64,000 nt of DNA, taken from assembly GCA_018333525.1 (NCBI GenBank), contig JAGXTF010000059.1, positions 17,334 to 81,333 of the forward strand. Direction: 5' to 3'. Both the position numbers and the translations under genes were made by a program. Each line of letters opens with the position of its first letter. Within the stretch, counting starts at the first letter, position 1. This DNA is from Bacteroidota bacterium. Its GTDB lineage: Bacteria; Bacteroidota; Bacteroidia; NS11-12g; UBA955. Of this stretch, positions 34,485 through 63,642 are shown piece after piece. Under the pieces are notes generated by a model. That model had not been told where the DNA came from. It did no database searches and saw nothing but the letters and a program-made list of their open reading frames with translations.

Positions 34485-37400
34485 ATGCATTTTTTAAGAG
34501 CGAAATTTTTGAAAGAAAGAAAAATTTCCGCATCAGGATTTTTATTTTTTTGCGCACCGGTAATTGCGTTAATCCTCTTTCCTACAGACATATTTGGACA
34601 GTCTGATGAGGATAGTACCAAGCTGAAATATAATATTTCCCCAACCAAGAAATGGGAAAAGCCGAAACCCGCTACCAATATTGATCTGTCAAATCCACTC
34701 ATGAAAGAGTGGAAATACAATCCCAAAACCAACAGATACGAGGAATACCAGACATTCGGGGGTATCTCCTATCCCACCGGCAACAGCATGTCGGTTATGG
34801 ATTTTTATAAAAAATTAAATCGCGAAAACCAGGAAGGCTACCTGCGTGAAAAGACCCAAAACACCAGCTACAGCCTTAACAGCAAAGGAAAAGGCAGCAT
34901 TACCGAATATGTGAAAGGGGAGTTGAATAATCCCACTATATCCAAAATATTTGGTGAAGGTGGGGTGGATTTCCAACTCAGTGGATCTGCCATGATAAAG
35001 CTGGGAGGAAACTGGAATGTAAACCGCAATCCAAGCTTCTCCAAAAGACAACAGCGATATTTTGTACCGGTTTTTGACCAGCAACTTCAAATTAGTGCCA
35101 ATGGAAGCATCGGTCAATTTGTGAAACTCGGAATCAATTACGACACAGAGGCGGCTTTTGACTTTGACAATCAAACAAATTTGGGCTGGAAAGGCAAACC
35201 GGATGGCATTTTAAAAGATGTTCAGATTGGAAATGTAAGTCTGAATCTTCCAACCCAATTAATTAAACCGACCAACAACCTTTTCGGCATATCCAATACT
35301 CTGGTTTTTGGAAATACTACCATAAAATCCGTGTTCTCCCAAAATAAAGGGCAGAGCACAGAAACAGTATTAAAAGGTGGTGCTCAGTTGAATGAATTCC
35401 GCATTACTGCTGACAATTACGACCAAAATCGCCACTATTTTCTGGCCCAATATTTTAGAGATAATTACAACAAGTCACTGGAGAATATGCCAAATATCCC
35501 CAGTAATGTGATTGTGAATCGTGTAGAAGTATGGATTACAAACCGAAATGCGAATGTGGAAACCCCAAGGGATATACTGGCTTTTCAGGATCTAGGGGAA
35601 TCGTCACCTTATCGCACCCAATTGGGAGGCAACGCAGATCCGTTACCGGATACATCTTCCAATATCATATTTGAGAAGTTGCGGCAATTCCCCAAAACCA
35701 GAAATATTGGAACCGCAATAGATGAAGTATACAAAGCATTTCCATATTTTGAACAGTCCGTGGATTTTGATATGCTCAATTATGCCAGGCAGCTGAGCAA
35801 AACAGAGTTCACATTCAGCCCCCAACTCGGTTATATTTCGTTGAATCAGCCATTGAATAATGATGAGATTCTGGCCGTGGCTTATGAATATTCCTATAAT
35901 GGAAAAGTGTATCAGGTAGGTGAATTTTCAAGGGATATTCCCCCTGGAAATCAAAAACTTTTGTATCTTAAAATGTTGAAAGGCAACACCATCAGAACCA
36001 AACTGCCCATGTGGAATTTGATGATGAAAAACATTTATTCCCTAAACAGTTATAGCCTGTCTCTCGAAGATTTTAAACTGAATGTAATTTATGCCGATGA
36101 TACCAGTGGTGCGGATTACAACTATCTGCCGGTGAAAGATGTGGGCGCGTTTAAAAATGGGAATCCGTTGATTCGCGTATTGGGATTGGACAAGCTGAAC
36201 AGGCAGATGGAAGCGAAACCCGATGGAATTTTTGATGCCTTTGAAGGGATGACCGTACAAACCCAGTATGCCAGAATAATTTTTCCGGTTACAGAACCTT
36301 TTGGAGATTATTTGAGAAGTCAGTTTGACGGTAATACGGATTTGGCGGATTATTATGCTTTTGATGCCCTTTATGACAGCACGAAATGGCTTGCTGCTCA
36401 GGATGTAAAACACAACAAATACTTTCTGACAGGAAGCTATAAAAGCCCCAATGGGGCAGAAATATTTTTGGGAACGACCAACCTGCAAAAGGGCTCTGTA
36501 CGCGTGACTGCCAATGGTCGACCGCTTACAGAGGGTATGGATTATGAAGTGGACTATGCATTGGGCAGAGTCCGGATTCTGAATCAGGGACTCTTACAGG
36601 GAGGTGCGGAAATACGCGCCAGTGCTGACGGTCAGTCTTTTTTTAACATTCAACAGAAAACATTGATTGGCGGAAGGGTGGATCACAAATTCAACAACAA
36701 ATTGTTGGTAGGTGCCACCATGCTCCACATGTATGAAAGACCACTTACTTCCAAAACGAACTTCAATGAGGAACCACTTCTGAATACCATTTTTGGTGCG
36801 GATTTGGCTTATAGCAGCAAAAGCCGATTTATTACCAGAATGGTGGATAAACTGCCATTTCTTGAAACAAAGGAAGTATCCAATATTACGGCATATGCAG
36901 AATTTGCCAAGATTATTCCGCACAATCACAAATCCCAGGGCGGGCAACGCGGGGTTTCGAATCTCGATGATTTTGAAAATGCTGAATTGCCCAATGATTT
37001 TAAAATGGTTTCGAACTGGGTTTTGGCCAGCGTACCTCTAAAACAACCGGATTTATTCCCGGAAGTGGGCAATGAAGACAAGCGAACCTGGCTGAATCGC
37101 GAAGCCAAATTATCTTTTTATACGATTGACCCCCTATTCTTCCGGGACAATGATATGCCTTCCAATATCAAAGGCAGAGTGGATGAAATTCTGAGCAATC
37201 ATTATATGCGTCAGATTGACCAGCGAGAAGTATTTCCGCAGCGCCAGTTTCCCAATGGAACACCTACCATTTTACCAACTTTGGATATCGTATTCCACCC
37301 CGAACGAAAAGGACAATACAATTTAAATTCCAATGTTGGTGAAGTAGATGCAAATGGGAATCTGACTGAACTCACCAAGAGCTGGGGTGGTATGATGCGG

Positions 37401-40400
37401 CGTGTGGATCAGAATGATTTCGAAGCTGCCAATATCGATTATATTGAAATATGGATGATGGATCCGCTTATCGACAATCCGAATCTGAAAGGTGATTTTT
37501 ATATCAATTTAGGAAGTATAAGCGAAGATGTGTTGCCCGATAGAAGGAAGTCATTTGAAAATGGATTGCCAACAGATGGTTCTACCGACAAAACAGACAC
37601 TACTGCATCAGCTATTGTACCATCAGTTCCTCAAATCAATTACGCATTTAATAACGATCCGGCATCTGTAAAAACCCAGGATGTGGGATTGGATGGGATG
37701 AATGACGACCAGGAAAGACTCATTCTGGACTCGTTTTATTTGCAAAGAATTGCTTCCAATTTTGGCACAGGTTCCAGTTTTTATGTGAATGCGCAAAACG
37801 ATCCATCAGGAGATAATTTTGCCCATTATCTGGAAGATAGTTTTGTAGGTCTGGATTACGATGTTATACAACGTTATCAATATTTTCAGGGACCTCAGGG
37901 AAATTCCAGCCCCGATAAATTCAACACCGCTCCATATACGGGAATGCCGAAATCCTCCACTACCCAACCCAATGATGAGGATGTAAACCGGGATTTCACC
38001 ATGAACCAAAGTGAGGATTACTACCAGTATAGAATAAAAATCAGCGCAGCAGATTTGCAAATCGGAAAAAATTATGTGGCAGATATTGTTCATAATTCTG
38101 TTACGCTTCGCAATGGTAAAAATTCTGAAATTAAATGGTACCAATTAAAAATTCCTATTCGCCAATATGAAAAAGCTGTAGGAAATATCAGTGATTTTAA
38201 GAGCATTCGTTTTATGCGGATGTTCATGACTAATTTCAATGGTACAGCGGTTATGCGTGTTGGATATATCAACATGGTTCGTGCAGATTGGCGGAGATAT
38301 ACCAATTCATTAAAAAATCCGGGAATTATTGTTCCATCTGATCCTAATGATGGGACTAAATTTATTGTAAGTACAGTGAACCTGGAAGAAAACAGCCTTC
38401 GCGCTCCTATTGCTTATGTAACGCCTCCCGGTGTTGTTCGTGTGCAAAATATGGCGAGCTTGGGCACCGTGCTGGAAAACGAGCAATCACTGTCCTTAAA
38501 AGTTTGTGATTTAAAAGCAGGCGATAGCCGTGCTGCATTTAAAACCACTCAAATGGATGCAAGAAACTATAAAAATCTGCAAATGTTTGTGCACGCAGAA
38601 GCATCCAACAATACCAATATTAATGATGGTGAAATTGCTGCATTTGTGCGTTTTGGAACTGACTTAACTTCCAATTATTATGAATATGAAATTCCGCTGA
38701 AACTCACCAGGGGATTTATAAATAAAAACACACCGGGAGCTGATCATGAAATTTGGCCTGATGAGAATTTTATTGATATCGCATTTGAAGCATTCTACAA
38801 CCTGAAAATGGATAGAATGAATGCGAACTGGCCAATGACCGCTCCATATAAAAAGCCAGGTGGCAGAGGTACTGTTTCAGTTATGGGGTTACCCGATGTT
38901 GGAAATATTCGGGTGATGATGGTGGGAATTAAAAACAACAGTTCTGCAAACCAGTGTTTTGAAGTATGGTTTAATGAATTGCGCGTAAAAGATATTGCGA
39001 ATAAAGGTGGCTGGGCCGCATTGGGAAATGTTCAGGCACAGCTCGCAGATTTTGGACAATTAAATTTGGCTGGAAGCATCAGAACCATTGGATTTGGAGA
39101 TGTAGATAAGAAGCTGAACCAGCGCAGTTTAAGCACCAACATGAATTATGATATCGCCAGTAACCTGGAACTGGGTAAATTTTTCCCCCAGAAAAAAGGT
39201 GTTTCTGTACCCATGTATATTGGTTATTCTGAAAGTTATGTAAGGCCAAAATTTTATCCCCTGAATCCCGATTTGGAATTGCAAACCTTTTTAGCTTCCA
39301 TTGCTGACCCGGATAAAAAGAAAGAAATACGAAAGGCTGCAGAAGACTATAATTCGCTTTACAGCCTCAACTTTTCAAATGTTCGAATAGCCGCTGCACC
39401 GGGCAGAAAATCTCTGCCATGGAGATTGAGCAATTTCAATGCATCTTATAATTATCAGAAAAATTATAAGCGCAACCAGCAAATCGAAGAATTTTTCAGC
39501 AAGACAACCGTACTGCAATTGGGATATAATTACGCCATTCCCACGAAATCTATTATGCCATTTAAAAAGTTGAAACCCAAATGGCTGAATCCGGTGCGGG
39601 AATTCAATTTCAATTTACTTCCGTCCAATATTAGTACCAATTGGAAAGTTTCCAGATATTACAGCGAAACACAATCGAGAAATAATAATTCTTTCAGACA
39701 AGTAAATCCGAGATTGTATGATAAGAATTTCTTTATGGACAGGATTTATAATTTCACCCTGCCATTAACAAGTTCAATCAACATTTCATACAATGCCACT
39801 GCAACTTCGCGCATACAGGAGCCATATGGTGCATTAAATTCAGAAGCCAAGAAAGACTCCGTAAAAACTGAATTGTTCTCACTGGGAAGACCCAAATCCT
39901 TTAATCAGACATTTACTGCAAGCTATCAATTGCCATTTGCCAAGTTTGCACGATTGAGCTGGATTACTACCAATATCACGTATACAGGAAGTTATCAATG
40001 GATGCAAGCTCCACCAGCTTTGGCATTTCTCGGCAATACCATTCAGAATGGCAGGGATATAAACCTGAGTACCACATTCAATTTTCAACAATTGTATATG
40101 AAAATTCCGTGGTTGAGAAATTTGGAAAAGCCTATTCCCACAAGGAATCCATTAAAACCATCGCCCAAGAAACCGGAACCTAAAAAAGAGGGAGATGAAG
40201 ATGAAAAACCAGCGCCAAAACCTAAAAATAGCCCTGCTAAAATTTTTGCCGGTAATTTTATCATGATGTTTAAGAATGCCAGCCTGAATTATTCTAAAAA
40301 AGAAGGAACAGAATTGCCGGGATTTATTTACAGACCGGATTATTTTGGTTATAATTTCCTTCACAAGGAACCTGGCATTCCATTTATTTTGGGTTGGCAG

Positions 40401-41618
40401 GATCAGGAAATTCGCTACAAACTGACCAATAGAAATGCGCTTAATCAGGATGTAAGACAATCTAATTTTTACCGCAGCAATTTCACAGAAAACATTTCCG
40501 GAAACATTACGCTTGAACCTATTAAAGGATTTAGAATTCAATTGGACTTCAACAGAAGCAAAACCAATGGTTTGCAAACCCAATATAGATGGGATGGCAC
40601 CAGGTGGATAGATCAGGGATTGACAGAAAACGGTTCCTATTCCATTACTTCAAATTTTATGCGTACCCATTTTGTGAAAGATCAAAATATTGGCGAAGAA
40701 CATCCGAATCAAAACTTCAAAAATTTTCTTGACAACAGATATTCCGTTGCACAGAAACTGATGTTTAACGATCAAAGGGTAACAGAAAAACGCGAGGATA
40801 CCATTACGAAGTTCCCAATTGGATATAGCAAAAATTCCCAGGACGTTTTGATAGGTTCCTTTTACAGCACATATTCCGGGAATGCCGCGAGCAAAAACGG
40901 GTTTAGTTTAACGGATGCGAAGGGAATGCCGCTAATACCGCTTCCGAACTGGAATATTAATTACAATGGATTAACTAAGATAAAAGCTCTGGGAAAAATA
41001 TTCACCAATATTACCCTCAAACATGCTTACAACGGCAGGTATATGATAGGCAGTTACACACGCAACCTGACATATAAAAGCGATGCTCTAGTACCGGATG
41101 ACGGTAAAGACTTTATTCCCAAAAACCTGATTGCCGATGCCACCATTTCAGAATCCTTTTCTCCTTTATTTGGATTAAATGTTGCAACCAAAAGTAACTG
41201 GACCCTGGGTATGGAATACAAGCGCTCCAGAATTATTAAATTATTTGCCGGCAGTTTTAATATTACTGAAATCAGAAGTAATGAATGGCAAATTACAGGT
41301 GGATACAGGGTTACAGGTTTAAATTTACCATTTAAACGAAACGGCCACCGTTTGTATTTACCCAATGATTTCCGCTTTGACCTCACTATTGCCATTGCCG
41401 ACAATAGCTCTACTCTGCGTAAAATTGACGAAAATATTAACCGCTATACAGCAGGTATGCGGAACATACAAATTCGCCCATCTGCCACCTATCAGGTAAA
41501 TACTAAAATCAACGTGGCGCTGAAGTATAACAAGGTAATTATGGATCCAAAAATCCAGCAGCAGTATTACACAGCGCTTACAGATTTTGCCATTGAAGTA
41601 CGTTATATACTGAATTAA
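34485..41618 (+). CDS. sprA: T9SS outer-membrane translocon SprA (Sov)
   Basis: 2377 aa with a signal peptide. Huge beta-barrel protein in the conserved ruvA-sprA arrangement. Length and composition are typical of SprA. Confidence 0.9.
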   Translation: MHFLRAKFLKERKISASGFLFFCAPVIALILFPTDIFGQSDEDSTKLKYNISPTKKWEKPKPATNIDLSNPLMKEWKYNPKTNRYEEYQTFGGISYPTGNSMSVMDFYKKLNRENQEGYLREKTQNTSYSLNSKGKGSITEYVKGELNNPTISKIFGEGGVDFQLSGSAMIKLGGNWNVNRNPSFSKRQQRYFVPVFDQQLQISANGSIGQFVKLGINYDTEAAFDFDNQTNLGWKGKPDGILKDVQIGNVSLNLPTQLIKPTNNLFGISNTLVFGNTTIKSVFSQNKGQSTETVLKGGAQLNEFRITADNYDQNRHYFLAQYFRDNYNKSLENMPNIPSNVIVNRVEVWITNRNANVETPRDILAFQDLGESSPYRTQLGGNADPLPDTSSNIIFEKLRQFPKTRNIGTAIDEVYKAFPYFEQSVDFDMLNYARQLSKTEFTFSPQLGYISLNQPLNNDEILAVAYEYSYNGKVYQVGEFSRDIPPGNQKLLYLKMLKGNTIRTKLPMWNLMMKNIYSLNSYSLSLEDFKLNVIYADDTSGADYNYLPVKDVGAFKNGNPLIRVLGLDKLNRQMEAKPDGIFDAFEGMTVQTQYARIIFPVTEPFGDYLRSQFDGNTDLADYYAFDALYDSTKWLAAQDVKHNKYFLTGSYKSPNGAEIFLGTTNLQKGSVRVTANGRPLTEGMDYEVDYALGRVRILNQGLLQGGAEIRASADGQSFFNIQQKTLIGGRVDHKFNNKLLVGATMLHMYERPLTSKTNFNEEPLLNTIFGADLAYSSKSRFITRMVDKLPFLETKEVSNITAYAEFAKIIPHNHKSQGGQRGVSNLDDFENAELPNDFKMVSNWVLASVPLKQPDLFPEVGNEDKRTWLNREAKLSFYTIDPLFFRDNDMPSNIKGRVDEILSNHYMRQIDQREVFPQRQFPNGTPTILPTLDIVFHPERKGQYNLNSNVGEVDANGNLTELTKSWGGMMRRVDQNDFEAANIDYIEIWMMDPLIDNPNLKGDFYINLGSISEDVLPDRRKSFENGLPTDGSTDKTDTTASAIVPSVPQINYAFNNDPASVKTQDVGLDGMNDDQERLILDSFYLQRIASNFGTGSSFYVNAQNDPSGDNFAHYLEDSFVGLDYDVIQRYQYFQGPQGNSSPDKFNTAPYTGMPKSSTTQPNDEDVNRDFTMNQSEDYYQYRIKISAADLQIGKNYVADIVHNSVTLRNGKNSEIKWYQLKIPIRQYEKAVGNISDFKSIRFMRMFMTNFNGTAVMRVGYINMVRADWRRYTNSLKNPGIIVPSDPNDGTKFIVSTVNLEENSLRAPIAYVTPPGVVRVQNMASLGTVLENEQSLSLKVCDLKAGDSRAAFKTTQMDARNYKNLQMFVHAEASNNTNINDGEIAAFVRFGTDLTSNYYEYEIPLKLTRGFINKNTPGADHEIWPDENFIDIAFEAFYNLKMDRMNANWPMTAPYKKPGGRGTVSVMGLPDVGNIRVMMVGIKNNSSANQCFEVWFNELRVKDIANKGGWAALGNVQAQLADFGQLNLAGSIRTIGFGDVDKKLNQRSLSTNMNYDIASNLELGKFFPQKKGVSVPMYIGYSESYVRPKFYPLNPDLELQTFLASIADPDKKKEIRKAAEDYNSLYSLNFSNVRIAAAPGRKSLPWRLSNFNASYNYQKNYKRNQQIEEFFSKTTVLQLGYNYAIPTKSIMPFKKLKPKWLNPVREFNFNLLPSNISTNWKVSRYYSETQSRNNNSFRQVNPRLYDKNFFMDRIYNFTLPLTSSINISYNATATSRIQEPYGALNSEAKKDSVKTELFSLGRPKSFNQTFTASYQLPFAKFARLSWITTNITYTGSYQWMQAPPALAFLGNTIQNGRDINLSTTFNFQQLYMKIPWLRNLEKPIPTRNPLKPSPKKPEPKKEGDEDEKPAPKPKNSPAKIFAGNFIMMFKNASLNYSKKEGTELPGFIYRPDYFGYNFLHKEPGIPFILGWQDQEIRYKLTNRNALNQDVRQSNFYRSNFTENISGNITLEPIKGFRIQLDFNRSKTNGLQTQYRWDGTRWIDQGLTENGSYSITSNFMRTHFVKDQNIGEEHPNQNFKNFLDNRYSVAQKLMFNDQRVTEKREDTITKFPIGYSKNSQDVLIGSFYSTYSGNAASKNGFSLTDAKGMPLIPLPNWNINYNGLTKIKALGKIFTNITLKHAYNGRYMIGSYTRNLTYKSDALVPDDGKDFIPKNLIADATISESFSPLFGLNVATKSNWTLGMEYKRSRIIKLFAGSFNITEIRSNEWQITGGYRVTGLNLPFKRNGHRLYLPNDFRFDLTIAIADNSSTLRKIDENINRYTAGMRNIQIRPSATYQVNTKINVALKYNKVIMDPKIQQQYYTALTDFAIEVRYILN

Positions 41619-43856
41619 GTGAAAAGTATTTTATTCAGAATTCCGCTATTTATTTTCCTTTTCCCATTGTTTATTGTTGCCCAGGAATTGCCCCTGGGTC
41701 AATGGAAAATGCATCCTTCCTTTTTGGATACCAGGCTTTGTGAAGCAACCGAACATTTTGTATATGGTGCATCTTCCAAGGGCTTTTTTCGCGTAAATAT
41801 TCAAAGTGCAGACATTGAAAGATTAACGGGAATGGATGGTTTCCACGGAAGAGAAATTACATCTTTGGATTATCTGGCAGATAAAAAAATTCTGGTAATT
41901 GGATATGCCGATGGATTTTTAGAATTGCTGAAAAATGAAACCGTAATTGTTGCAATTCCCGGTTTTTACAATGAAATGTTACAGGGCGATAAAAGTATTT
42001 TACATTGTAGTTTTAAAGACAATGATGCTTTGATTTCCACCAATTTCGGAATTTTGGTATTGGATCTCGAAAAGAATGAAATAAGGGAGAATTATAAAGA
42101 TATTGGAACCAACGGACAAACCCAACCGGTAAGGAGCACCGCTGTTTTGGGAGACAGTATTTATGCCGGTATTCCTGATGGAATTATTGCTGCAAAATAT
42201 GCTGTAAACGTTAATTTAAAGAACTTTTTAAATTGGAAAAAAGTTTACTCCAAGGGGCCCGGAAACCAACTTTGCAGCTTTAGCGACAGCATTTATTTTT
42301 ATTCGGACAGCATTGTTTTAACTTATAAAAATGGCGTTGTTTTGAATAGTTTTATACCTGGAAAATCCACGACAAAAAGAATAAAAGTTTTTCAAAACAG
42401 AATTTATTTTTTCAGACCCGGAGCAATAACGAATCAAAAATCAGATGCAAGCAGAACCGTTACCAATATGAATCTCTTATCCTCCGGGACATTGGATGCT
42501 GAGGGCTCTTTGTGGTATTGCACCGGCTTTGGGGGTGGTGCAATTAAATTAATTCCCGGAAGTGAAATTGCATTTGAACCCAATGGTCCAACTTCTAATT
42601 CTGTTTTTGCAATGAGTAAAAAAGGAAATTATTTATTTACTACCGGTGGTGGTGTTACCAATACATTTGGTAACGCATACAATCCGGCTGGATTTTATAT
42701 TTATAATAATTTCCGCTGGAATTCCAACCCTGCATCTGTTTATAATACAGGCTTGTATGATTATACTTTTGTTCATTTCAATACAGTAACAGATAAGTAT
42801 TATTTAGCTACACATACCAATGGAATGCTGGAGTTTAGCGGTGGTGTTGCAACCAACAGATTTGATGACAACAATGCACCTTTTTTTCGCGATCCGGGTT
42901 CGGGATTTATTAGAATCAGTGGTGTTGCAAACGATAAGGAGGGTAACTTATGGGTGAACAATTATGGCGGAGAAAAACCGCTGCTGGTGTATAAAGGTGG
43001 CACCTGGACCGGAATTAAAGTAACGGAATCATCCAGTTTAAAGGCCTTGGTTATTGACGACAATGACTACAAATGGATGATTGTTCAGGGCAATGGTATT
43101 TTGGTTTATGATGACAATAAAACACCAGGCAACGATTTGGATGACAAATCTGCGAGACTTACAACTTCAAACGGTTTAATAACCAATGATGTATTGTCAC
43201 TTCAGGTAGATCAGAATGGTTATGTTTGGATTGGAACCACACAAGGATTAAATGTGGTAACCAATACTGCTGACATTTTTGTGAAGCCCAAAATCGACAG
43301 GTTTATTATTGAACAAAATGGAAGTACAGGATATTTGTTAGGGGAAGAAACCATCAATGATATTTGTACCGATGGTGGAAACAGAAAATGGTTTGCAACG
43401 AATAACGGAGTGTTTTTGGTGGAACCAAACGGACAGGAAGTGCTGCTAAAATTCACTGCGGATAATAGCCCCTTACCGGACAACAGAGTGTATTGCATCG
43501 GGCAGGTATCAAATTCCGGCGAAGTATTTTTTGGTACCGATGCGGGAATTGTATCCTATAGAAGTGACGCCAGCGATGCAGATGAAACATTTAAAAAAAT
43601 AAAAATTTATCCCAATCCGGTACGACCAGGATATAATGGCTTGGTAACTATAGAAGGACTCGCAAAAAATGCGGAAATCAGAATTACCGATGCAGCAGGA
43701 ATGCTAATTTATCAAACCAAGGCAAATGGAGGCACAGCTACATGGCCATGCACCAAACTCGATGGCAGCAAACCTGAAAGTGGCGTCCTTTATGTTTTTG
43801 GCATCAATGAAGAAGGCACAGAAACTGCTATGGGGAAGTTTGTTTTTATAAAATAA
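41619..43856 (+). CDS. PorZ-like T9SS component/cargo: two-component-regulator-propeller repeats plus a type-A T9SS CTD
   Basis: GTG start directly after the sprA stop (TAAGTG). Signal peptide. Repeated Reg_prop-like motifs (VWIGTTQGLNVV, WFATNNGVFLV, VFFGTDAGIVSY). C-terminus KIYPNPVRPGYNGLVTIEGL...GVLYVF is a T9SS type-A CTD. The architecture matches PorZ, which has two beta-propellers and a CTD. Confidence 0.6.
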   Translation: MKSILFRIPLFIFLFPLFIVAQELPLGQWKMHPSFLDTRLCEATEHFVYGASSKGFFRVNIQSADIERLTGMDGFHGREITSLDYLADKKILVIGYADGFLELLKNETVIVAIPGFYNEMLQGDKSILHCSFKDNDALISTNFGILVLDLEKNEIRENYKDIGTNGQTQPVRSTAVLGDSIYAGIPDGIIAAKYAVNVNLKNFLNWKKVYSKGPGNQLCSFSDSIYFYSDSIVLTYKNGVVLNSFIPGKSTTKRIKVFQNRIYFFRPGAITNQKSDASRTVTNMNLLSSGTLDAEGSLWYCTGFGGGAIKLIPGSEIAFEPNGPTSNSVFAMSKKGNYLFTTGGGVTNTFGNAYNPAGFYIYNNFRWNSNPASVYNTGLYDYTFVHFNTVTDKYYLATHTNGMLEFSGGVATNRFDDNNAPFFRDPGSGFIRISGVANDKEGNLWVNNYGGEKPLLVYKGGTWTGIKVTESSSLKALVIDDNDYKWMIVQGNGILVYDDNKTPGNDLDDKSARLTTSNGLITNDVLSLQVDQNGYVWIGTTQGLNVVTNTADIFVKPKIDRFIIEQNGSTGYLLGEETINDICTDGGNRKWFATNNGVFLVEPNGQEVLLKFTADNSPLPDNRVYCIGQVSNSGEVFFGTDAGIVSYRSDASDADETFKKIKIYPNPVRPGYNGLVTIEGLAKNAEIRITDAAGMLIYQTKANGGTATWPCTKLDGSKPESGVLYVFGINEEGTETAMGKFVFIK

Positions 43857-43864
43857 ACATACAA

Positions 43865-44130
43865 CGCTGTTGGTCCTCTTGCCACATTAGCGAAGCATGT
43901 GGCGACCAATGGCATCCTCACTCAAACCTATTACAGCATAGCGCTGTTGGTCCTCTTGCCGCATTAGCGAAGCATGCGGCGACCAACAGCTAATCACTTC
44001 ATTGTATAAGAACTTGTCGTTGGTCGCCTTGCGCTGCGCCGGCAAGGCATGAGGACCAACGACGCTCAGTCGTGCAGTGGCACTGTTGGTCCTCGTGCCA
44101 CATCAGCGAAGCATGCCGCGACCAACAGCT
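43865..44130. repeat. REP/BIME-like cluster upstream of the RAYT gene: four GC-rich ~49-bp palindromic units (types 1,1,2,1)
   Basis: Units at 43865-43912, 43942-43990, 44015-44064 (inverted type) and 44082-44130. Consensus CGCTGTTGGTCCTCaTGCCgCATcAGCGAAGCATGcGGCGACCAACAGC. Each unit is an imperfect palindrome. Confidence 0.8.
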
Positions 44131-44138
44131 TCCTATTC

Positions 44139-44168
44139 GTTTATTTCCGTTTATTTCCGTTTATTTCC
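44139..44168 (+). repeat. perfect tandem repeat (GTTTATTTCC)x3
   Basis: Three exact 10-bp units between the last upstream REP unit and the RAYT start codon. Confidence 0.8.
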
Positions 44169-44201
44169 GGATACAAATTATGTCCAAATTATTATTACCA
44201 A

Positions 44202-44720
44202 ATGAATGAGAAAATCAATAATTTATTTTTCTTTACTGCAACATGTTTAAATTGGAAACATTTGATCCATCAGGATTCTACAAAATTATTTTTAATTAAC
44301 TCTTTGAATTATTATACAGAAAAATCCATTTGCAGAATTTATGGATTTGTAATTATGCCGAATCATATACACTTAATAATTGCAATAAATAATGAACAGC
44401 GGAATTACTTTCAACATTCTTACTTAAAGTTTACAGCACAAACTATTATTGGTGAATGGAGAAATAACAAATCGATATTATTGAATTCCATAAAATCAAC
44501 ACAAGCTGACAGAAAATTCCAATTTTGGGAACGGAATCCAAAATGGAAGTCCATTCAAACGGATGAGAGTTTTTGGAAAACGCTGAGATATATTCATGAT
44601 AACCCAACGCAGGAACACTGGAAATTGGTTGAAAATGCGGAAGATTATATGATGAGTTCAGCTAAATGTTACTTAAAAGGAAATTCTGAATTTACTTGTC
44701 TTACAATCTATTGCCCCTGA
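44202..44720 (+). mobile_element. REP-associated tyrosine transposase (RAYT, IS200/IS605-like Y1 HuH transposase family)
   Basis: HuH motif IMPNHIHLII. Catalytic-Tyr region KTLRYIHDNPTQ, similar to the Y..NP motif of RAYT/IS200 TnpA. 172 aa. Flanked on both sides by REP palindromes. The ORF track starts at 44049, but that stretch is translated REP sequence, so the start is the ATG at 44202. Confidence 0.7.
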
Positions 44721-44728
44721 TAAATTAA

Positions 44729-44915
44729 TGTCGTTGGTCGCCTTGCGCTACGCAGGCAAGGCATGAGGACCAACGACGATACCACTGCACAGCGCTGTTG
44801 GTCCTCATGCCGCATCAGCGAAGCATGCGGCGACCACCAGCTAATTACTTCATTTTATAGGCACCTGTCGTTAGTCGCCTTGCGCTGCGCCGGCAAGGCA
44901 TGAGGACCAACGACG
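44729..44915. repeat. REP/BIME-like cluster downstream of the RAYT gene: three units (types 2,1,2)
   Basis: Units at 44729-44778, 44793-44841 and 44866-44915. The type1-spacer-type2 arrangement with spacer TAAT.ACTTCATT.TATA repeats the pairing seen at 43942-44064. Confidence 0.8.
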
Positions 44916-44942
44916 CTATAATAATTTACGACAAACCAAATC

Positions 44943-45716
44943 CTATTTAGGATCAGGCAATTCCAGAACCAGACCATCATATGCCAATTCCACATTCGGT
45001 GGTAATTCCATATTCACCTCATCATGAAATCCGATTTGATGACTCATGTGCACAAAATAGGTTTTGTCTGCCTGAACCTTTTCCGCAACCGCAACTGCTT
45101 CATCCAAAGTAAAATGCGAAATATGGTGTTCTCTTCTCAATGCATTTAAAACAAGAACTTTACTTCCCATTACTTTTTGCAATTCATTTTCTGCAATAAA
45201 ATTCGCATCGGTGATATAGGTAAAATCTCCAATTCTAAAACCAAGAACGGGCAATTTATAGTGCAATACTTCAATGGGTATGATATCCATACCAAATAAA
45301 TTAAAAGGTTTATTTTCTATCTGATGAAAATTAATTTCCGGAATTCCGGGATACTTTTTTTCAGAAAAAATATAGTGATATTGGTATTGAAATGCCTGCA
45401 ATACACGCTCAGACAAGTAAACATCAACCGGCTTGTTATGAAGGTAATTAAATGGCCTTATATCGTCCAACCCTGCAGTGTGATCCCTGTGCTCATGGGT
45501 AAACAATATTGCATCCAACCTGCTGATACCTGCACGAATTAACTGGTAGCGGAAATCGGGGCCTGCATCAATTACAATGCTATAATCTCCAATTTGCAAA
45601 TGAACAGAACAGCGAAGCCTTTTGTCTTTGGGGTTTTCTGAAAGACAAACCGGACTGTCACAACCTATCGGCGGAACGCCCTGGGATGTACCTGTACCCA
45701 AAAATGTGATCTTCAC
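44943..45716 (-). CDS. MBL-fold metallo-hydrolase
   Basis: Metallo-beta-lactamase His motif FTHEHRDHTAG, plus downstream His/Asp ligands (HMSHQ). 257 aa. Confidence 0.75.
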   Translation of the reverse strand: MKITFLGTGTSQGVPPIGCDSPVCLSENPKDKRLRCSVHLQIGDYSIVIDAGPDFRYQLIRAGISRLDAILFTHEHRDHTAGLDDIRPFNYLHNKPVDVYLSERVLQAFQYQYHYIFSEKKYPGIPEINFHQIENKPFNLFGMDIIPIEVLHYKLPVLGFRIGDFTYITDANFIAENELQKVMGSKVLVLNALRREHHISHFTLDEAVAVAEKVQADKTYFVHMSHQIGFHDEVNMELPPNVELAYDGLVLELPDPK

Positions 45717-45801
45717 GGTTTACAAATGTAGCCATTGACATTCAGCTTTGAAATGTCGCCGAAATCAAAATTGTATTAAAAAATCTGAAATTTCAATGGA
45801 A

Positions 45802-46791
45802 TTAACTGGCGTTCGATTCCAGAAAACCTTTTAATCCGTTTATGTTTTCTACTACCAGATTATTTACGCCTTTTTCATTGGAGATCAATATACTCAACCA
45901 ATCCATGGTATGAATAATTTCGAAAATGGAAGCAAATCCAAAATGATCCAAAGGGTATTCAAATATTTTATTCCCATGTTGCTCCAAAACTTTTTTCAAA
46001 TAATGAAAACGCAACGTGTTCCGCTCGTTCACGCCACTATTTAAAAGAATAAAATTGGTATCATGTCTGGAATAATAGCTTTCTATCATGTTGTGGTTTG
46101 CCTCTGGCAATATGCTCACAAAGGCCTCCCCTTTTGCATTCTCCTGAATTTGTTGGCAAAATCTGGTAGCAACAGCTTCCAATGCCAAATCACAAATCAA
46201 CACATATTTGTGATGAACATGTGGCATAAAATAATGCAACATTTCTTCCGCACGGAAGCGCATGGATTTGTTGTTTTCCAAATTTACACGAACCTTTTCC
46301 AGTTGGCTTCCCATGTCATATTCAATAAGGTCTGCCAAAATCATCAACAAAGTACAAAGGGAATATCCCAAAGCCATTCTAGGTTGAAATCCAGCTTCTG
46401 AAAAATAAACCGGCAGTCCGTCTTTTTGTGCCATTTCTGCAAGACTTCCACCGCTGGTGAGCACCATCATGGTACATCCTTTTGACTTCGCATCAGCGTA
46501 CATGGAAAGCGTTTCCTCTGTATTTCCACTATAGGAATTTAAAATTACCAGTGTTCTCTGATTTGCAAATGCAGGTAATTTATATTCAGAAATTACTTCA
46601 ATAGGAATTGGAAAGCTCGTATAAAAGGCTAGTCTTGCAATCTTACCTCCAATTCCCGATCCACCAAGTCCACCTATTATAACGTGATCAAATTCATTCA
46701 CTTTTCGGCCATGTGAAGCATAATTGCGCAACACATATGCCACTTGTTCATGAAAGTTATTGAGGGCTGTTTCGTGGGTTAAAATAGTCAT
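45802..46791 (-). CDS. SIS domain protein (bifunctional phosphoglucose/phosphomannose isomerase-like)
   Basis: Two SIS-like nucleotide/sugar-phosphate binding segments (VIIGGLGGSGIGG..., VLNSYSGNTEETL). 329 aa. Confidence 0.7.
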   Translation of the reverse strand: MTILTHETALNNFHEQVAYVLRNYASHGRKVNEFDHVIIGGLGGSGIGGKIARLAFYTSFPIPIEVISEYKLPAFANQRTLVILNSYSGNTEETLSMYADAKSKGCTMMVLTSGGSLAEMAQKDGLPVYFSEAGFQPRMALGYSLCTLLMILADLIEYDMGSQLEKVRVNLENNKSMRFRAEEMLHYFMPHVHHKYVLICDLALEAVATRFCQQIQENAKGEAFVSILPEANHNMIESYYSRHDTNFILLNSGVNERNTLRFHYLKKVLEQHGNKIFEYPLDHFGFASIFEIIHTMDWLSILISNEKGVNNLVVENINGLKGFLESNAS

Positions 46792-46817
46792 AAAGATAGA
46801 TCATAAGCTGCCGGAAT

Positions 46818-48965
46818 TTAATCCCAGCCGAATTTATACCTGTAGTCCTGAATTTCTCCTTTGGTGCGGAAAATCTCCTCCAGTCTTCTGGAAAGAAATT
46901 GTGGATTATTGGCAAAATCTTCCTGATTTTCAAATCCTGTTTTTGGCGCTTCTATTTTGTCCTTGCTCTCAATCCATAAGATAGCAACAACGTTAGCACC
47001 TTTTACCGGCTTGCTCCATGCTTTCTCTTTAACTCCAAAAATTGCACCCAAAATTTTAGGTTCCGTGAATAATTGAGGAATAAAATTAGAACTCATTTTC
47101 ACACTCTCCAGAGGAATTACAGTTCCACCTGATTTCTGAGCTATTTCTTCAGCAGTTTTAGACCCGGCAAGCGCCTTTTCAAATTTCTCTACAATCTTGG
47201 CAGCTTTGAGCTCATTACGAACCAGTGGTTCAATTTTTTCGCGCACATCTTTTACTTCTGCATACCCTCTGGATCTGGCGTTGGTAACGATTACAACCAT
47301 ATGCCTGGTGCTGAATGCAAATACGTCGCTTACGTCATTTTGCTTGCGCTCTGCTTCAAACAACCAGGAGAGCAGGGTTTTAACATCTTCATTTTGAGTA
47401 AGTCCGGGGATATCGCGGTCTTCGGTTCGAATTTCCTTTTTAACTCTTGGCTGCAAACCGAGTTTATCACGGGCAGCTTCAAAACTTTTTATATCTCCTT
47501 CGGTAATGCTGTTTCTAAATTTCCTGCTTGCTTCATCTACCAGTTTTATGGTGGCTGGACCAGGCATTACTTCCACCGCATGTTTGCGATATTTTATTTT
47601 AATCTTATCCGGATTCTCCAGTTGTTTCATTACATGGAATCCAAATTGTGTATGCACAACATCCATATCCCCTTTGGTATGGGTTGCACACCATTTTCCA
47701 AATTCAGGAACATATTTACTGGCAGGGGCCCAGTCGTAAATTCCTTTTTCCATTGCAGAACCGGGGTCACCACTGTAATCTTTTGCAAGTGCACCAAAAT
47801 CTGCCCCGGCTTTAAGCTTGGCCAGTAATTCAAAAGCAAGTGCTTTTGCCTGTGCCGAATCCGCAATTTTCATCTTATTAGGCAAACCTCCATTGTTCGG
47901 AATGAGGATATGCGCCACTTTCACATATGGGTTTGTTGTATCTGTTTGCTCATCCAGTTTTTGAATAATGGTGTATTTGCCATCTATCGTCATAATTGGC
48001 AGCATAGCATTTTTTGGCAATGAAGCTAAAGGTGCATACATCGCTTTTTCAAATGAATCGCGGCCTAATTCCCTGGAAGAAGTAAATTTCTCTACCCCTT
48101 CACCGGCAGTATCTGGCTTTGTTTCTTTGCTCCATGAAGTATAGAATTCTTCTGCTTGTTTTTTGGAATATGCAGTATCCTCAGAATTTGGAATGATTTC
48201 CCAATATACATATTGAATATCTCTGGTTGCAAAAGCCTGTTTGTATTCTTCGCGATGCTCCTTCAAATATTTTTCCAAATCCGCATCGGTAACTTTTACA
48301 TCTTTATCTGCAATAACCGAGTAGTTTACCGCTACAGCTTTGCCAGTAGCACCCTGATTGGCTGCCACATATGCATATTCCTTTTCAACCTTGGATTTCA
48401 TTTGAGCCTTGGAAATATACTGGGTATAGTGTTTTTCCAACTCTTGTTGTTTCACATTCTTCACAAAATCCAAGAGGTTTTTCTGAAGGGTTTTATTGGT
48501 CTTCGCCATTTTGAACAGGTCAGAAACCTTTTTCACATCATAATTGCCATCTGTTTGAAAATCCTGAATTCCTTTTACGGTTTCAATGGGATAATCTCCC
48601 ATAATCATTTCATTGAACTCTTCATCGGAAATGCCAATATTCGCCATGTTAATCTGCTTTTCCATGGTGCGGCGCTTGATCAAAGTTGTCCAACTCTGGT
48701 CAATCAAACCTTTTCTGGTTTTTTCATCATCTTTAAAATCGGGATTGCTTTCGCTCTCGCGTTTAAAAAGTTCCGCGAAAATTTCATTCAAATCATTGAT
48801 TTTGACTTTTTCGCCAAATATTTCACCAATAACATCCTGATCTTCCCGGGACAACCCTGTGTATTTACTTCCGGTGAGTACATCACCCAATACAAACAAT
48901 ACCAGAGCCACAACTATCGCGATTACTACCGCTCCTGAATTTCTTAGCTTTTGAATTATAGCCAT
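46818..48965 (-). CDS. peptidyl-prolyl cis-trans isomerase, PpiD/SurA-like periplasmic chaperone (parvulin domain)
   Basis: N-terminal TM anchor. SurA-N-like domain and a parvulin motif (QFGFHVMKQ). 715 aa, typical of the Bacteroidetes PpiD-like protein. Confidence 0.8.
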   Translation of the reverse strand: MAIIQKLRNSGAVVIAIVVALVLFVLGDVLTGSKYTGLSREDQDVIGEIFGEKVKINDLNEIFAELFKRESESNPDFKDDEKTRKGLIDQSWTTLIKRRTMEKQINMANIGISDEEFNEMIMGDYPIETVKGIQDFQTDGNYDVKKVSDLFKMAKTNKTLQKNLLDFVKNVKQQELEKHYTQYISKAQMKSKVEKEYAYVAANQGATGKAVAVNYSVIADKDVKVTDADLEKYLKEHREEYKQAFATRDIQYVYWEIIPNSEDTAYSKKQAEEFYTSWSKETKPDTAGEGVEKFTSSRELGRDSFEKAMYAPLASLPKNAMLPIMTIDGKYTIIQKLDEQTDTTNPYVKVAHILIPNNGGLPNKMKIADSAQAKALAFELLAKLKAGADFGALAKDYSGDPGSAMEKGIYDWAPASKYVPEFGKWCATHTKGDMDVVHTQFGFHVMKQLENPDKIKIKYRKHAVEVMPGPATIKLVDEASRKFRNSITEGDIKSFEAARDKLGLQPRVKKEIRTEDRDIPGLTQNEDVKTLLSWLFEAERKQNDVSDVFAFSTRHMVVIVTNARSRGYAEVKDVREKIEPLVRNELKAAKIVEKFEKALAGSKTAEEIAQKSGGTVIPLESVKMSSNFIPQLFTEPKILGAIFGVKEKAWSKPVKGANVVAILWIESKDKIEAPKTGFENQEDFANNPQFLSRRLEEIFRTKGEIQDYRYKFGWD

Positions 48966-50738: not shown

Positions 50739-51698
50739 TTAATGCATTCCGGCTAAGCTATGTTTGTGGGATAGCCAGCGCTCAGCATCCAATGCCGCCA
50801 TACAACCGGATCCCGCAGCTGTTACAGCCTGCCTGTATACTTTATCCTGAGCATCGCCTGCGCAAAAAACACCTTCCATATTGGTATAAGTGGAATCGGA
50901 TTTGGTTATGATATAGCCCTGATCATCCATATCCAAATAATCTTTAAAAATCTCCGTATTTGGTTGGTGACCGATGGCCACAAAAAACCCCTTAATTGGA
51001 AATTCTCTTTTTTCACCGGTTACATTATTAACTACCCTTACTGCTTCTACCACATGGTCACCAAGTATTTCATCTGTTTCAGAATTATACAGGATTTCTA
51101 TGTTTTTCGTATTTTCAACGCGATGTTGCATGGCTTTCGATGCGCGGAAATGGTCTTTGCGCACAATCATATATACCTTGTTGCAGATTTTGGCCAGATA
51201 GCTTGCTTCTTCACAGGCAGTATCCCCCGCTCCAACAATTGCCACATCCATTCCACGATAGAAGAAACCATCGCAAACCGCACAGGCACTTACTCCACCC
51301 CCATTTAATTTTTCTTCACTTGGCAACCCCAACCATTTGGCCGATGCCCCGGTACAAATGACCACGGTTTCTGCAATAATCTCTTTGTTATAATCCACAG
51401 TTATCTTTTGAGGTCCCCCATCTTTAAACTCCACTGCGGTTACCATTCCAAATCTCACATCAGCACCAAGTCTTACCGCTTGTTTTTTAAAGAGGTCCAT
51501 CATTTCAGGCCCCATAACACCATCGGGGTATCCCGGGTAATTTTCAACTTCTGTAGTAATGGTTAGCTGTCCCCCGGGTTGAAGACCCTCATATAAAACG
51601 GGCTTCATATCTGCACGAGCAGCATAAATTGCGGCGGTATATCCGGCAGGGCCGCTTCCAATTATCAAACATTCAATGTGTTCAGGTTCCTGATTCAT
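50739..51698 (-). CDS. trxB: thioredoxin-disulfide reductase
   Basis: FAD motif IIGSGPAGYTAAIYAAR, redox-active CAVCDG and NADPH motif. 319 aa. Confidence 0.9.
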   Translation of the reverse strand: MNQEPEHIECLIIGSGPAGYTAAIYAARADMKPVLYEGLQPGGQLTITTEVENYPGYPDGVMGPEMMDLFKKQAVRLGADVRFGMVTAVEFKDGGPQKITVDYNKEIIAETVVICTGASAKWLGLPSEEKLNGGGVSACAVCDGFFYRGMDVAIVGAGDTACEEASYLAKICNKVYMIVRKDHFRASKAMQHRVENTKNIEILYNSETDEILGDHVVEAVRVVNNVTGEKREFPIKGFFVAIGHQPNTEIFKDYLDMDDQGYIITKSDSTYTNMEGVFCAGDAQDKVYRQAVTAAGSGCMAALDAERWLSHKHSLAGMH

Positions 51699-51826
51699 AA
51701 ACAGAGCGCAAATTTAAGGAAGGAACAATTGAGGCCACAAAGAGTTGCCAACTTTTAAACCACGAATTGTAATTTTTGATCAGGTACCGCGTTTAAGCTA
51801 TTATAATTTATTGAATATTTAAGGTC

Positions 51827-53287
51827 ATGAAAAAATCGAATTACTTTTATGCGGTTGTTGCAGTTTTATTTTTTGGAGCATGCAATTCTAACCAATTCAA
51901 AAAAGACAACATAAGTATTGATGCCAAATCCGAAACTTTTTCGATACAAAAGGAACTGAATTCTATTTCGGCAAATGCGGAGCATTATTCCATAAATGCT
52001 ACGACAGGCGAACAAATCACAACTACCGGCGGAGCAAGAATTCTGATTGCTCCGGAAAGTTTTGTAACTAAAAATGGTGAACCTGTATCAGGCCCGATAG
52101 ATCTGAGTTATAAAGAGATGAATTCTATTGCTGAAATTGTTGCTTCGGGTATTCCAATGCAGGCAAATAACAATGGCACTATTGGACAATTTGTGAGCGA
52201 TGGTATGTTTGAAATCAGTGCCAGTTCCAGAGGCGAAGAATTAAATGTGGCACCGGGAAAGGTTCTGAAAGTATTTACAAAAAGCCGCGATAAAAATTCA
52301 ACTTTTCAATATTGGTATTTCAATAAAAGCAAAGGCATTTGGGAAGAAACAGGAACTCGTGAAACTCTGGCAAATGAAACCGATATTCAATCTGAAATGG
52401 CATTGATGAATATCAATTCCAAAACAGGAATTACGAGTGCCAACTGGAGATGGTATTCCGGCAACAATCACGGGATTCAAACTGTTGCAAATGAAAATGG
52501 AACAATCATTACTCCGAATAAAATGATACCGGGGAAATACGATTCCAAAAAATTAACTTTGGATTTGGAATTCAACCTCGCTTTATATCCTGAACTCGCG
52601 GGTTACAGCAGTTTAATGTGGCAATTTGCCGGTAGTGATCTGACAGAAGATCCGGCGAGAAATAACTGGATTTTTCAAACTGCCTGGAACAATGTAAAAC
52701 TGGAGCCAATAGCAGAAAAACCAGGTTTTTTTAATTTAAGTATGGATGCAGGTGGTAAGCCTTTTCATACCGTAGTGCGTCCGGTAGTGCAGGGTAATGA
52801 TTATGAAAAAGCTAAAGAAGAATACGGAAAACAACTGGTAAATTTAGAAAAGGAAAGAACCAGAATCCTCAACGAAGGTGCCAGTGCGGATCAAATTACA
52901 AAAAACTTATACAATGCATTTCAGGTGAGCAGAATGGGTGTTTTTAATTGCGACAGATTTTACAGCGATGTAAATGCAAAGGAATATACTGCCAGTTTTG
53001 AACTGGATGGCAAAGCCATGGACCCGGAAAGAATGATCTATATCGTAACAGACCGAAGAACCGGGGTAATTCAATACACAGCAAAATATTACAAAATGAG
53101 ATTTAACCCTCGTATGTTGGACGCCATTTTTGTAGTTGCTGCAAATGGTACCATTGCCGCAGTAAATGCATCAGGGATACATTCCATTAAGGAAGGGAAT
53201 GGTGGAAAGGTCCATCTGGTATTTGAAAATGTAAAAACCAAAATCAAAGATTTGGGTAGTTTGAAAGAAGCTATCGACAACCTCTAA
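51827..53287 (+). CDS. hypothetical lipoprotein
   Basis: Lipobox AVLFFGAC. No recognisable domain. Immediately upstream of the WG-repeat protein. Confidence 0.5.
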   Translation: MKKSNYFYAVVAVLFFGACNSNQFKKDNISIDAKSETFSIQKELNSISANAEHYSINATTGEQITTTGGARILIAPESFVTKNGEPVSGPIDLSYKEMNSIAEIVASGIPMQANNNGTIGQFVSDGMFEISASSRGEELNVAPGKVLKVFTKSRDKNSTFQYWYFNKSKGIWEETGTRETLANETDIQSEMALMNINSKTGITSANWRWYSGNNHGIQTVANENGTIITPNKMIPGKYDSKKLTLDLEFNLALYPELAGYSSLMWQFAGSDLTEDPARNNWIFQTAWNNVKLEPIAEKPGFFNLSMDAGGKPFHTVVRPVVQGNDYEKAKEEYGKQLVNLEKERTRILNEGASADQITKNLYNAFQVSRMGVFNCDRFYSDVNAKEYTASFELDGKAMDPERMIYIVTDRRTGVIQYTAKYYKMRFNPRMLDAIFVVAANGTIAAVNASGIHSIKEGNGGKVHLVFENVKTKIKDLGSLKEAIDNL

Positions 53288-53306
53288 TACAATTAACAGG
53301 ATTAAA

Positions 53307-56684: not shown

Positions 56685-56795
56685 TTAATCTCCGGCCTAA
56701 AGAACAATCGCAGAAAATTAAAAAGTATTAAACCTTTGGGATTATGGGTTGAAAAACTTGTATTCCCATCCCGCATTGCGCAAATTCGCAATACA

Positions 56796-60350: not shown

Positions 60351-60353
60351 AAA

Positions 60354-60683
60354 ATGCCCGTTAAATTAGAAATCCTCCGAAATTATTTGAACCATGATGA
60401 AAAAATGGTGCAGAAATTTCTTCAGCTTTTTTGCAGTGCCATTCCTCAGGATTTGAACAAATTGAAACAATATATGCATGAATCCGATTTTAAATTGGCA
60501 TCGGTTACTGCACATAGTATCAAATCACAATGCGCCTATCTGGGTCTGGATCTAGCGCGATTGATGGCTGAAAAACTGGAAAACATATCGCAGATTGGGC
60601 ATGAACAGAATATATTATTTGAAAGCCTTGAAAATATTTTATTGTCGGAAATTGCCGAAATGAAAATGACCTTGAATATTTAA
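60354..60683 (+). CDS. Hpt (histidine phosphotransfer) domain protein
   Basis: 109 aa. Hpt-like motif AHSIKSQCAYLGL in a four-helix-bundle-sized protein. Begins 4 nt after the hybrid HK. Confidence 0.6.
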   Translation: MPVKLEILRNYLNHDEKMVQKFLQLFCSAIPQDLNKLKQYMHESDFKLASVTAHSIKSQCAYLGLDLARLMAEKLENISQIGHEQNILFESLENILLSEIAEMKMTLNI

Positions 60684-60729
60684 AAATTATTCTTCCATTA
60701 AAATCCTTAAATTTGATAAAAACTATCCT

Positions 60730-61431: not shown

Positions 61432-61489
61432 TAGTATGTATTTTTGAATTTTGTTTTGAGCCGGACATTACAAAAACTAGTTTTGTTCC

Positions 61490-63403: not shown

Positions 63404-63578
63404 TACTATTCGAATACCAAGCTTTCGGATTATGAAATGAGAAAGAGTATTTAAGGACCCAAATCATCAGTAATACCTTTTAATATTTCCAACTGATCAA
63501 TTATCTATCCCTCTCCAATAATGGATTTCAGATATTTGGTCAGACTACATTTGTCAAAACAAAATCTTTTATAAGTGC

Positions 63579-63622
63579 AAAAAAAAACCCTGCACTGCAA
63601 TCTGCAGTTTCAGGGTTTTTTA
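63579..63622. terminator. bidirectional terminator-like hairpin (A-run, CCCTGCACTGCA-atc-TGCAGTTTCAGGG, T-run)
   Basis: Imperfect 12-13 bp stem flanked by A9 upstream and T6 downstream. Lies between convergent acs and a minus-strand small ORF. Confidence 0.55.
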
Positions 63623-63642
63623 TTCATGTTGCTAAACCTTGT

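Follow-up and report, generated by a model that had tools for sequence, protein, structure and literature searches.

Does a small transposase-like gene, set among GC-rich palindromes in the genome of an uncultured Bacteroidota bacterium, work together with those palindromes, or do they merely share an address? The gene and its palindromes lie in a stretch of 64,000 nucleotides (the window) from contig JAGXTF010000059.1 of assembly GCA_018333525.1. A preliminary description of this DNA took them for a REP-associated tyrosine transposase (RAYT) with its repetitive extragenic palindromic (REP) sequences. Follow-up analysis points the same way. The locus is very probably a REPtron, or RAYT-REP system, of a Bacteroidetes-type subclass, in which the RAYT gene sits within a cluster of its cognate REP hairpins; and the hairpins probably are DNA elements moved by the RAYT.

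The palindromes come first. A repeat search of the window recovered all seven, four upstream and three downstream of the gene, just where they had been reported. They form a 51-nt family (type 1, four copies) and a 53-nt family (type 2, three copies), with copies 88-100% and 92-100% identical to the respective reference copy. A 38-nt pattern met by all seven occurs nowhere else in the 64 kb, and 100 shuffled versions of the window never produced it. Two other early observations were borne out. Mean GC content is 61% in the copies, 38.9% in the window as a whole, and 29.7% in the RAYT gene. The two types, described as partial reverse complements, have the same outer stem (GTTGGTCCTC...GCGACCAAC) and different inner stems; reverse-complemented type 2 aligns column for column with type 1.

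Both types share one plan. The 5' flank is (A)GC. In the outer stem, of 10 bp, G(CT/TC)GTTGGTC pairs with GACCAAC(AG/GA)C; a one-sided bulge of 5 nt, CTCNT, follows on the 5' arm. Next comes the 7-bp inner stem, which is GCCGCAT/ATGCGGC for type 1 but GCCTTGC/GCAAGGC for type 2, and a 9-nt loop caps it. The loop is tipped by GCGCAGC in type 2 (for example, 44036-44042), and by GCGAAGC in type 1 (43965-43971) and in a third type, described below. (These tips are G-N-A mini-hairpin motifs.) As single-stranded DNA, all seven copies fold into this two-tiered hairpin of about 50 nt, with stabilities of -14 to -18 kcal/mol, and six clearly beat their shuffled counterparts (z -2.5 to -5.5).

Covariation supports the pairing. 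The test used 12 copies: the seven in the window, and five from a related organism that include the third type (inner stem GCCATGC/GCATGGC). Standard pairs fill 95.6% of cells; sliding the partners by 1-3 columns lowers this to 24-52%. Both sides have changed in seven of the 19 pairs, compared with 0-1 in the slid controls; these both-side changes represent a few events common to copies of one type, rather than many independent ones. The hairpins are one structural family, which comprises three or more sequence types that differ by compensatory changes. On its canonical strand, type 2 reads AGCGTC-GTTGG, which recalls the CGTC-tagged REP superfamily (Di Nocera 2013). The likeness is superficial, because those REPs are built on stems of 8-9 bp with loops of 4-5 nt and are not accompanied by a transposase.

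The copies are also arranged in an orderly way. Written in canonical orientation, the copies run -> -> <- -> [gene ->] <- -> <-. Type 2 copies, without exception, point the opposite way to type 1, the types alternate, and the two gene-proximal copies face the gene as an inverted pair. Tail-to-tail pairs are separated by a conserved spacer of 23 nt, and head-to-head pairs by 10-12 nt between the annotated copies. The recurrence of a type 1-spacer-type 2 pair, a feature of the preliminary description, is real: the block at 43933-44066 is repeated at 44784-44917 with 92% identity over 134 nt (92.1% over 127 nt).

What does the gene encode? The predicted protein, 172 residues long as first reported, contains the motifs MPNHIHLII and RYIHDNP. 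These supply the HuH histidines, H55 and H57 (PNHIH), and the presumed catalytic tyrosine, Tyr130 (YIHDNP); FWER lies at residues 108-111, and Y149, S152 and S153 lie near the carboxyl terminus. A homologue search found 372 proteins, nearly all of about 175 residues, the closest 55% identical. All of the named homologues are from Bacteroidota: Mucilaginibacter, Arcicella, Flavisolibacter, Chitinophagaceae, and Sphingobacteriales. Alignment of 47 homologues reveals invariant residues P53-N-H-I-H57, W109, R111, Y130, H132, N134, P135, Y149, S152, and S153, and the window protein keeps every one. Residue E110 in FWER is nearly invariant, and the consensus tyrosine motif is YIHNNP, compared with YIHDNP in the window protein. 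Forty-four of the 47 match Pfam Y1_Tnp at E <= 0.01.

Structure prediction carries the comparison further. An AlphaFold model built on the 47-homologue alignment (pLDDT 94.7, pTM 0.89) most resembles 4ER8 chain A, the Escherichia coli RAYT on a REP hairpin (Foldseek E 1.1e-7; TM 0.62/0.65; 177 columns, full length). All 30 fold matches in the Protein Data Bank (PDB) at E <= 0.001 are Y1 transposases; TnpA proteins of ISDra2, IS608, and IS200 rank below 4ER8, with just about 125 aligned columns. The family profile likewise finds 4ER8 first among PDB sequences, weakly, and a single-sequence search of the PDB returned nothing meaningful. The only match in an NCBIfam scan was to REP_Tyr_transpos (NF047646; E 2.4e-17).

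These comparisons bear on whether the gene is instead the transposase of an autonomous insertion sequence (IS) of the IS200/IS605 type, moving itself, with the palindromes as locally duplicated subterminal end hairpins. The Y1 fold is common to the IS608 and ISDra2 enzymes, but the NCBIfam transpos_IS200 model (NF033573) does not match the protein at E <= 1, and the full-length likeness to TnpA-REP takes in a carboxyl-terminal extension that IS transposases lack. An IS would bring a single hairpin at each end, both on one strand; here, hairpins of two types occur in multiple, inverted copies. The gene's GC content, well under the host's, its absence along with the whole block from the same junction in syntenic relatives, and the different gene neighbourhoods of its orthologues would all suit an IS. 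Against this stand a single gene copy in about 70 kb of the source genome (the window plus 6.3 kb of contig L027, below), the lack of tnpB, gene-free hairpin doublets in a related organism, and the near-absence of the family from plasmids (four distant matches, 27-31% identical, among 72,556) and phages (none among 50,697). The last is the profile of a RAYT, not of an IS (PMC5581495). An autonomous IS is therefore improbable. The low GC content of the gene could reflect foreign origin or a family-wide composition.

Evidence for a partnership between protein and hairpins comes from other genomes. Seven genes for related proteins, at six loci, all are bracketed by inverted hairpins (-> gene <-). 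These hairpins are lineage-specific, yet all begin with GTTGG and end with CCAAC. This stem base is kept around all eight genes examined, down to about 40% protein identity, and the remainder of the hairpin is unrelated. The hairpin downstream of the closest relative (L028) is layered like those in the window, with an outer stem, then a 5-nt bulge, then an inner stem. The gene there adjoins a HipA-like gene, so the RAYT gene is not syntenic across lineages. That seven homologous genes in unrelated neighbourhoods each adjoin their own lineage-specific hairpins points to a protein-hairpin partnership.

One of these loci has further features. In Mucilaginibacter sp. X4EP1 (CP183229; L022:2300-6528), two RAYT-like paralogues lie 2.7 kb apart, both flanked by several tandem copies of a 22-nt hairpin, TTGTTGGAGTTGTCTCCAACAA. 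Arrays of 75-77-bp repeats and a GIY-YIG gene are nearby.

Gene and hairpins alike are missing from the corresponding place in syntenic relatives. Relatives keep the gene order RuvA-SprA-PorZ ... MBL hydrolase-PGI-like-SurA-like (window 34500-48000; MBL, metallo-beta-lactamase) at about 66-70% nucleotide identity. Three of these (L024, L025, and L026) have MBL orthologues 74-78% identical, retain the SprA-PorZ ... MBL-PGI-SurA synteny, and contain neither REP hairpin nor RAYT at the PorZ/MBL junction. The called PorZ and MBL genes are just 2 bp apart in L025 and L026, and a small 4HBT thioesterase gene occupies the junction in L024. BLASTN similarity to the relatives ends at 43856 and restarts at about 44950. 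Because PorZ and the MBL gene abut in syntenic relatives, the 1,086-bp block is a lineage-specific insertion relative to them. In the window, these two housekeeping genes converge on the block, which fills the gap between their stop codons. (SprA and PorZ, type IX secretion genes of the host, point to a Bacteroidetes host.) Given the thioesterase gene in L024, this convergent gap seems to accept insertions repeatedly.

Placement exactly between convergent genes would also suit host regulatory elements: terminators or mRNA-stabilising structures, locally amplified, with the transposase-like gene incidental or inactive. A hairpin copy in the related organism likewise occupies a convergent gap, no other copies were seen in the 70 kb, and E. 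coli REPs affect mRNA stability and termination, according to PMC3733652. However, a terminator scan found none among the hairpins, and no T-tract follows any of the seven. Rfam contains no matching family, only sub-threshold noise to fungal small RNA and microRNA models. A gap of 2 bp suffices for relatives at this junction, the family-invariant residues of the protein all are intact, and each of the seven homologous genes has its own hairpins on both sides. A purely regulatory origin is thus very hard to credit, even more so than an autonomous IS, although a secondary terminator effect of the hairpins is possible.

If the RAYT moves the hairpins, copies should be found elsewhere. Joint Genome Institute (JGI) metagenome contigs, in a collection without the source contig, were scanned with the REP pattern and gave ten matches. 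Seven are chance matches without a palindrome. The other three (L004, L010, and L005) are true relatives, all from sample Ga0207952 and a related organism, with hairpin copies 82-95% identical to those in the window. Two of them lie on one 243-kb contig; each is an intergenic, gene-free, head-to-head type 2/type 1 doublet, 82-87% identical over 113-123 nt to window 44015-44130 and 44725-44848, with about 20 nt between the 42-nt cores. The third, on a 659-kb contig, is a single copy of the third type in the convergent gap between an IS200-type open reading frame (ORF) and metK. None of the three loci has further similarity to the window, and none encodes a RAYT homologue nearby.

The dispersed unit, as seen in the related organism, is the head-to-head type 2/type 1 heterodimer. 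This revises one point of the preliminary description: the type 1-spacer-type 2 pair that it highlighted does recur, but the unit found dispersed is the other pairing, represented in the window by 44015-44130 and 44729-44842. Three loci in about 0.9 Mb, found with an exact pattern, suggest a copy number in the tens per genome, not hundreds.

The IS200-type ORF on the 659-kb contig (L005:1584-2042) is a different Y1 gene; it passes NF033573 with 72 bits, and its Y...Q..HH signature is the one given for Quentin's subclass 1.2. The third-type hairpin (L005:2268-2312) lies directly downstream. A link between the two was considered and set aside: the ORF is not bracketed by hairpins, so their proximity is treated as probably coincidental.

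Other collections were searched as well. Viral contigs contained no REP matches. Four pattern matches among GTDB genomes, from high-GC Actinomycetota, Chloroflexota, and Gammaproteobacteria, are about as many as expected by chance and were discarded.

Perhaps the REPtron was once active but is now a relic, its hairpins no longer moving and its seven copies a fossil cluster. Several copies do carry stem-breaking substitutions (the CCAAT end at 43869, CCACC at 44797, GTTAGTC at 44870, and the degraded inner stem at 44085), and the 70 kb of source genome contain no copy outside the locus. Yet the full-length ORF has kept every invariant residue, the best hairpins come close to perfect, the two doublets of 127-134 nt agree at 92% of positions, and well-formed dispersed doublets persist in the related organism. 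A relic is unlikely, if less so than the two other alternatives.

Several observations weigh against a RAYT-REP system, beginning with the copies themselves. The REP hairpins do not occur outside the gene's own cluster in the 70 kb, GTDB representative genomes contain none of the family, and the hairpins are clearly much less numerous than those of E. coli or Pseudomonas. The canonical 5' GT[AG]G guide is absent: neither GTAG nor GTGG occurs in the 5' flank. The homologue search found no RAYT orthologue above 55% identity, and the enzyme for the related organism's dispersed copies was not recovered. In sequence, the protein resembles 4ER8 weakly (14% identity; profile E 0.0014). The W motif, too, departs from that tabulated for the proposed subclass (below), and the literature cited reports no biochemical activity for its members. 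Finally, the preliminary description had named the Pfam Y1_Tnp (PF01797) and RAYT models as checks; the matches to both are significant (E 7e-4 for PF01797) but fall below the curated cut-offs (NF047646, 63.2 bits compared with 80; PF01797, 20.2 compared with 23), and by that strict measure the protein fails. Significant but sub-threshold scores imply a divergent subclass rather than the NCBI "equivalog." Predicted fold, motifs, and family context outweigh these scores, and support assignment of the protein as a RAYT-type HuH/Y1 enzyme.

How might a RAYT-REP system of this type operate? By analogy with E. coli TnpA-REP (4ER8) and Pseudomonas REPINs (REP doublets forming hairpins), the RAYT would bind the hairpin as it folds in single-stranded DNA, which is probably the template of the lagging strand, and would read the conserved stem base together with the asymmetric bulge. 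Cleavage beside the hairpin would employ Tyr130, with a metal held by His55 and His57, and rejoining would follow. The presumed outcome is that a head-to-head doublet of about 115 nt, a REPIN-like unit, spreads at low copy number or frequency, and that the gene stays single-copy.

A more specific proposal can be offered tentatively, with doubt somewhat exceeding conviction. RAYTs of this Bacteroidota branch may recognise the paired GTTGG/CCAAC stem base rather than a GTAG guide; the 5-nt pyrimidine bulge may set polarity; and the mobile unit may be an obligate heterodimer, BIME-like, that evolved independently outside the Proteobacteria.

Table 1. Features of the locus, in window coordinates, and hairpin stem bases beside related genes
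Feature	Position	Strand	Remarks
PorZ gene	41619-43856	+	Left flank; NF052228 match, 505 bits
Whole inserted block (REPtron: RAYT gene and seven REP hairpins)	43857..44942 (1,086 bp)	none	Delimited by synteny breaks
REP type 1, copy 1	43864..43914	+	Most diverged; right arm ends CCAAT
REP type 1, copy 2	43941..43991	+	Best hairpin, -18.3 kcal/mol as single-stranded DNA
REP type 2, copy 1	44015..44067	-	Left half of upstream head-to-head doublet 44015-44130
REP type 1, copy 3	44080..44130	+	Gene-proximal upstream; inner stem degraded, z -1.0
Perfect 10-bp tandem repeat (CGTTTATTTC x3.2)	44138..44169	none	Leader between last upstream REP and start codon
RAYT/TnpA-REP-like HuH-Y1 gene, 172 residues	44202..44720	+	From ORF, profiles, alignment, and fold
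REP type 2, copy 2	44729..44781	-	Gene-proximal downstream; left half of downstream head-to-head doublet 44729-44842
REP type 1, copy 4	44792..44842	+	Stem-breaking substitution, CCACC
REP type 2, copy 3	44866..44918	-	GTTAGTC variant
MBL-fold hydrolase gene	44943-45716	-	Right flank
L028, protein P0002			Hairpin stem base GTGGTTGGTC and TTGGTTGGTG
L016, protein P0006			Hairpin stem base GTGGTTGGTC
L018, protein P0003			Hairpin stem base ATGGTTGGTC
L020, protein P0005			Hairpin stem base CTGGTTGGTG
L022, Mucilaginibacter sp. X4EP1, two paralogues			Hairpin stem base TTGTTGGAG
L023, Flavisolibacter			Hairpin stem base CGTTGGCG

The table includes a perfect 10-bp tandem repeat, which may be part of the RAYT promoter or leader. 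The hairpins themselves have practical consequences. They cause amino-terminal over-extension of RAYT gene models: a 223-residue ORF listed from 44049 begins inside a hairpin and over-extends the RAYT gene by 44049-44201, and the JGI call for the closest homologue (206 residues; L028:368-475) likewise begins inside the upstream hairpin. They also probably break short-read assemblies at the locus. Logan contig SRR6213120_9387 (L027; 25,412 bp, from another sample) is 100% identical to window 51490-64000, and its other end, judged by coordinates, would lie near window 44,888, within the last hairpin, which suggests breakage in the cluster.

The RAYT/REP partnership is the best-studied case of a domesticated transposase that maintains non-coding mobile hairpins, and mechanistic work on it comes almost entirely from Proteobacteria. 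For the Bacteroidota, the present locus is unusually clean: its gene is intact, its seven hairpins are well formed and of two compensating types, relatives show the empty site, and a sister organism has doublets without the gene. The locus might serve as a test case for DNA recognition without a GTAG guide in the Bacteroidetes-type subclass.

Comparison with known systems places the locus among them. TnpA proteins of the IS200/IS605 family (IS608, ISDra2) would share with the modelled protein the catalytic core fold, HuH/tyrosine chemistry, and recognition of single-stranded DNA hairpins. The window protein differs in giving no match to the IS200 model and in having an extra carboxyl-terminal region; its locus differs in its multiple, inverted hairpins, its single gene copy, and its lack of tnpB, and its family is almost absent from plasmids and phages.

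The E. coli K-12 TnpA-REP (YafM; subclass 2.2 or Group 2; 4ER8) is closer, with the same HuH-Y1 fold matched over its full length. Its gene also lies between inverted REPs, which are imperfect palindromes with a bulge that confers polarity. In E. coli BIMEs, Y and Z REPs alternate in opposite orientation; the two window types do the same, with characteristic spacers. Nevertheless, the proteins are 14% identical and from different phyla, the window protein scores under the NCBIfam equivalog cut-off, and copy number appears to be tens rather than hundreds. Moreover, the conserved element is a paired stem base, GTTGG, not an unpaired 5' GTAG guide.

The Pseudomonas REPIN-RAYT system (Group 3 or subclass 2.5; Bertels and Rainey 2011, PMC3116915) offers another parallel: a dispersed inverted doublet with a short spacer (about 20 nt here), gene-free in intergenic DNA, with a single-copy RAYT. 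The window-family doublets, in contrast, are heterodimers, with much longer hairpins and much lower abundance. Because the inner stems of the two types differ, such a doublet cannot form one long perfect hairpin.

Among described groups, the one that suits the protein best, judged on host, sequence motifs, and type of hairpin, is TnpA-REP subclass 2.6, which is specific to Bacteroidetes. Quentin et al. (2018; BMC Genomics 19:475, PMC6006769) equate this subclass with RAYT Group 5 of Bertels (2017; PMC5581495). The preliminary description, which had seen a classic proteobacterial-style arrangement, was right about the RAYT and the inverted, alternating REPs, but the type is not proteobacterial. 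Subclass 2.6 proteins come mostly from Bacteroidetes, average 179 residues, and contain NH[LIV]H, YIH[QN]NP, and a carboxyl-terminal SS; their hairpins are atypical, flank the gene, have copies elsewhere, lack the GT[AG]G foot, and have "weaker secondary structure" (PMC6006769). Table S1 of that article lists GTTGG-type hairpins for two Runella proteins, and loop variants GCGAAGC/GCGCAGC in the subclass 2.6 entry PbraA01 (GCGAAGC also in the subclass 2.2 entry PstuA01). RAYTs in general are single- or low-copy, chromosomal, and rarely on plasmids, and the commonest 16-mer flanking Group 5 genes occurs about 31 times genome-wide, counted per replicon (PMC5581495).

The window system agrees in its Bacteroidota host; its 172-residue length; NHIH, the family YIHNNP, and the carboxyl-terminal SS; flanking hairpins without a GT[AG]G foot; copies elsewhere, in the related organism; and low gene copy number. 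It departs in three respects. Its own tyrosine motif is YIHDNP. Its family has FWER ("WE") in place of the tabulated "WQ"; "WE" is the W motif tabulated for subclass 2.2 (PMC6006769), and the difference may mark a sub-branch or a different reading of the motif. Its hairpins, far from weak, are stable, about 50 nt long, and of two alternating types. The type of system, then, has already been described; what this locus adds is modestly new: a conserved GTTGG stem base that is paired and replaces the GTAG guide, and a BIME-like heterodimer of compensating hairpin types in Bacteroidota.

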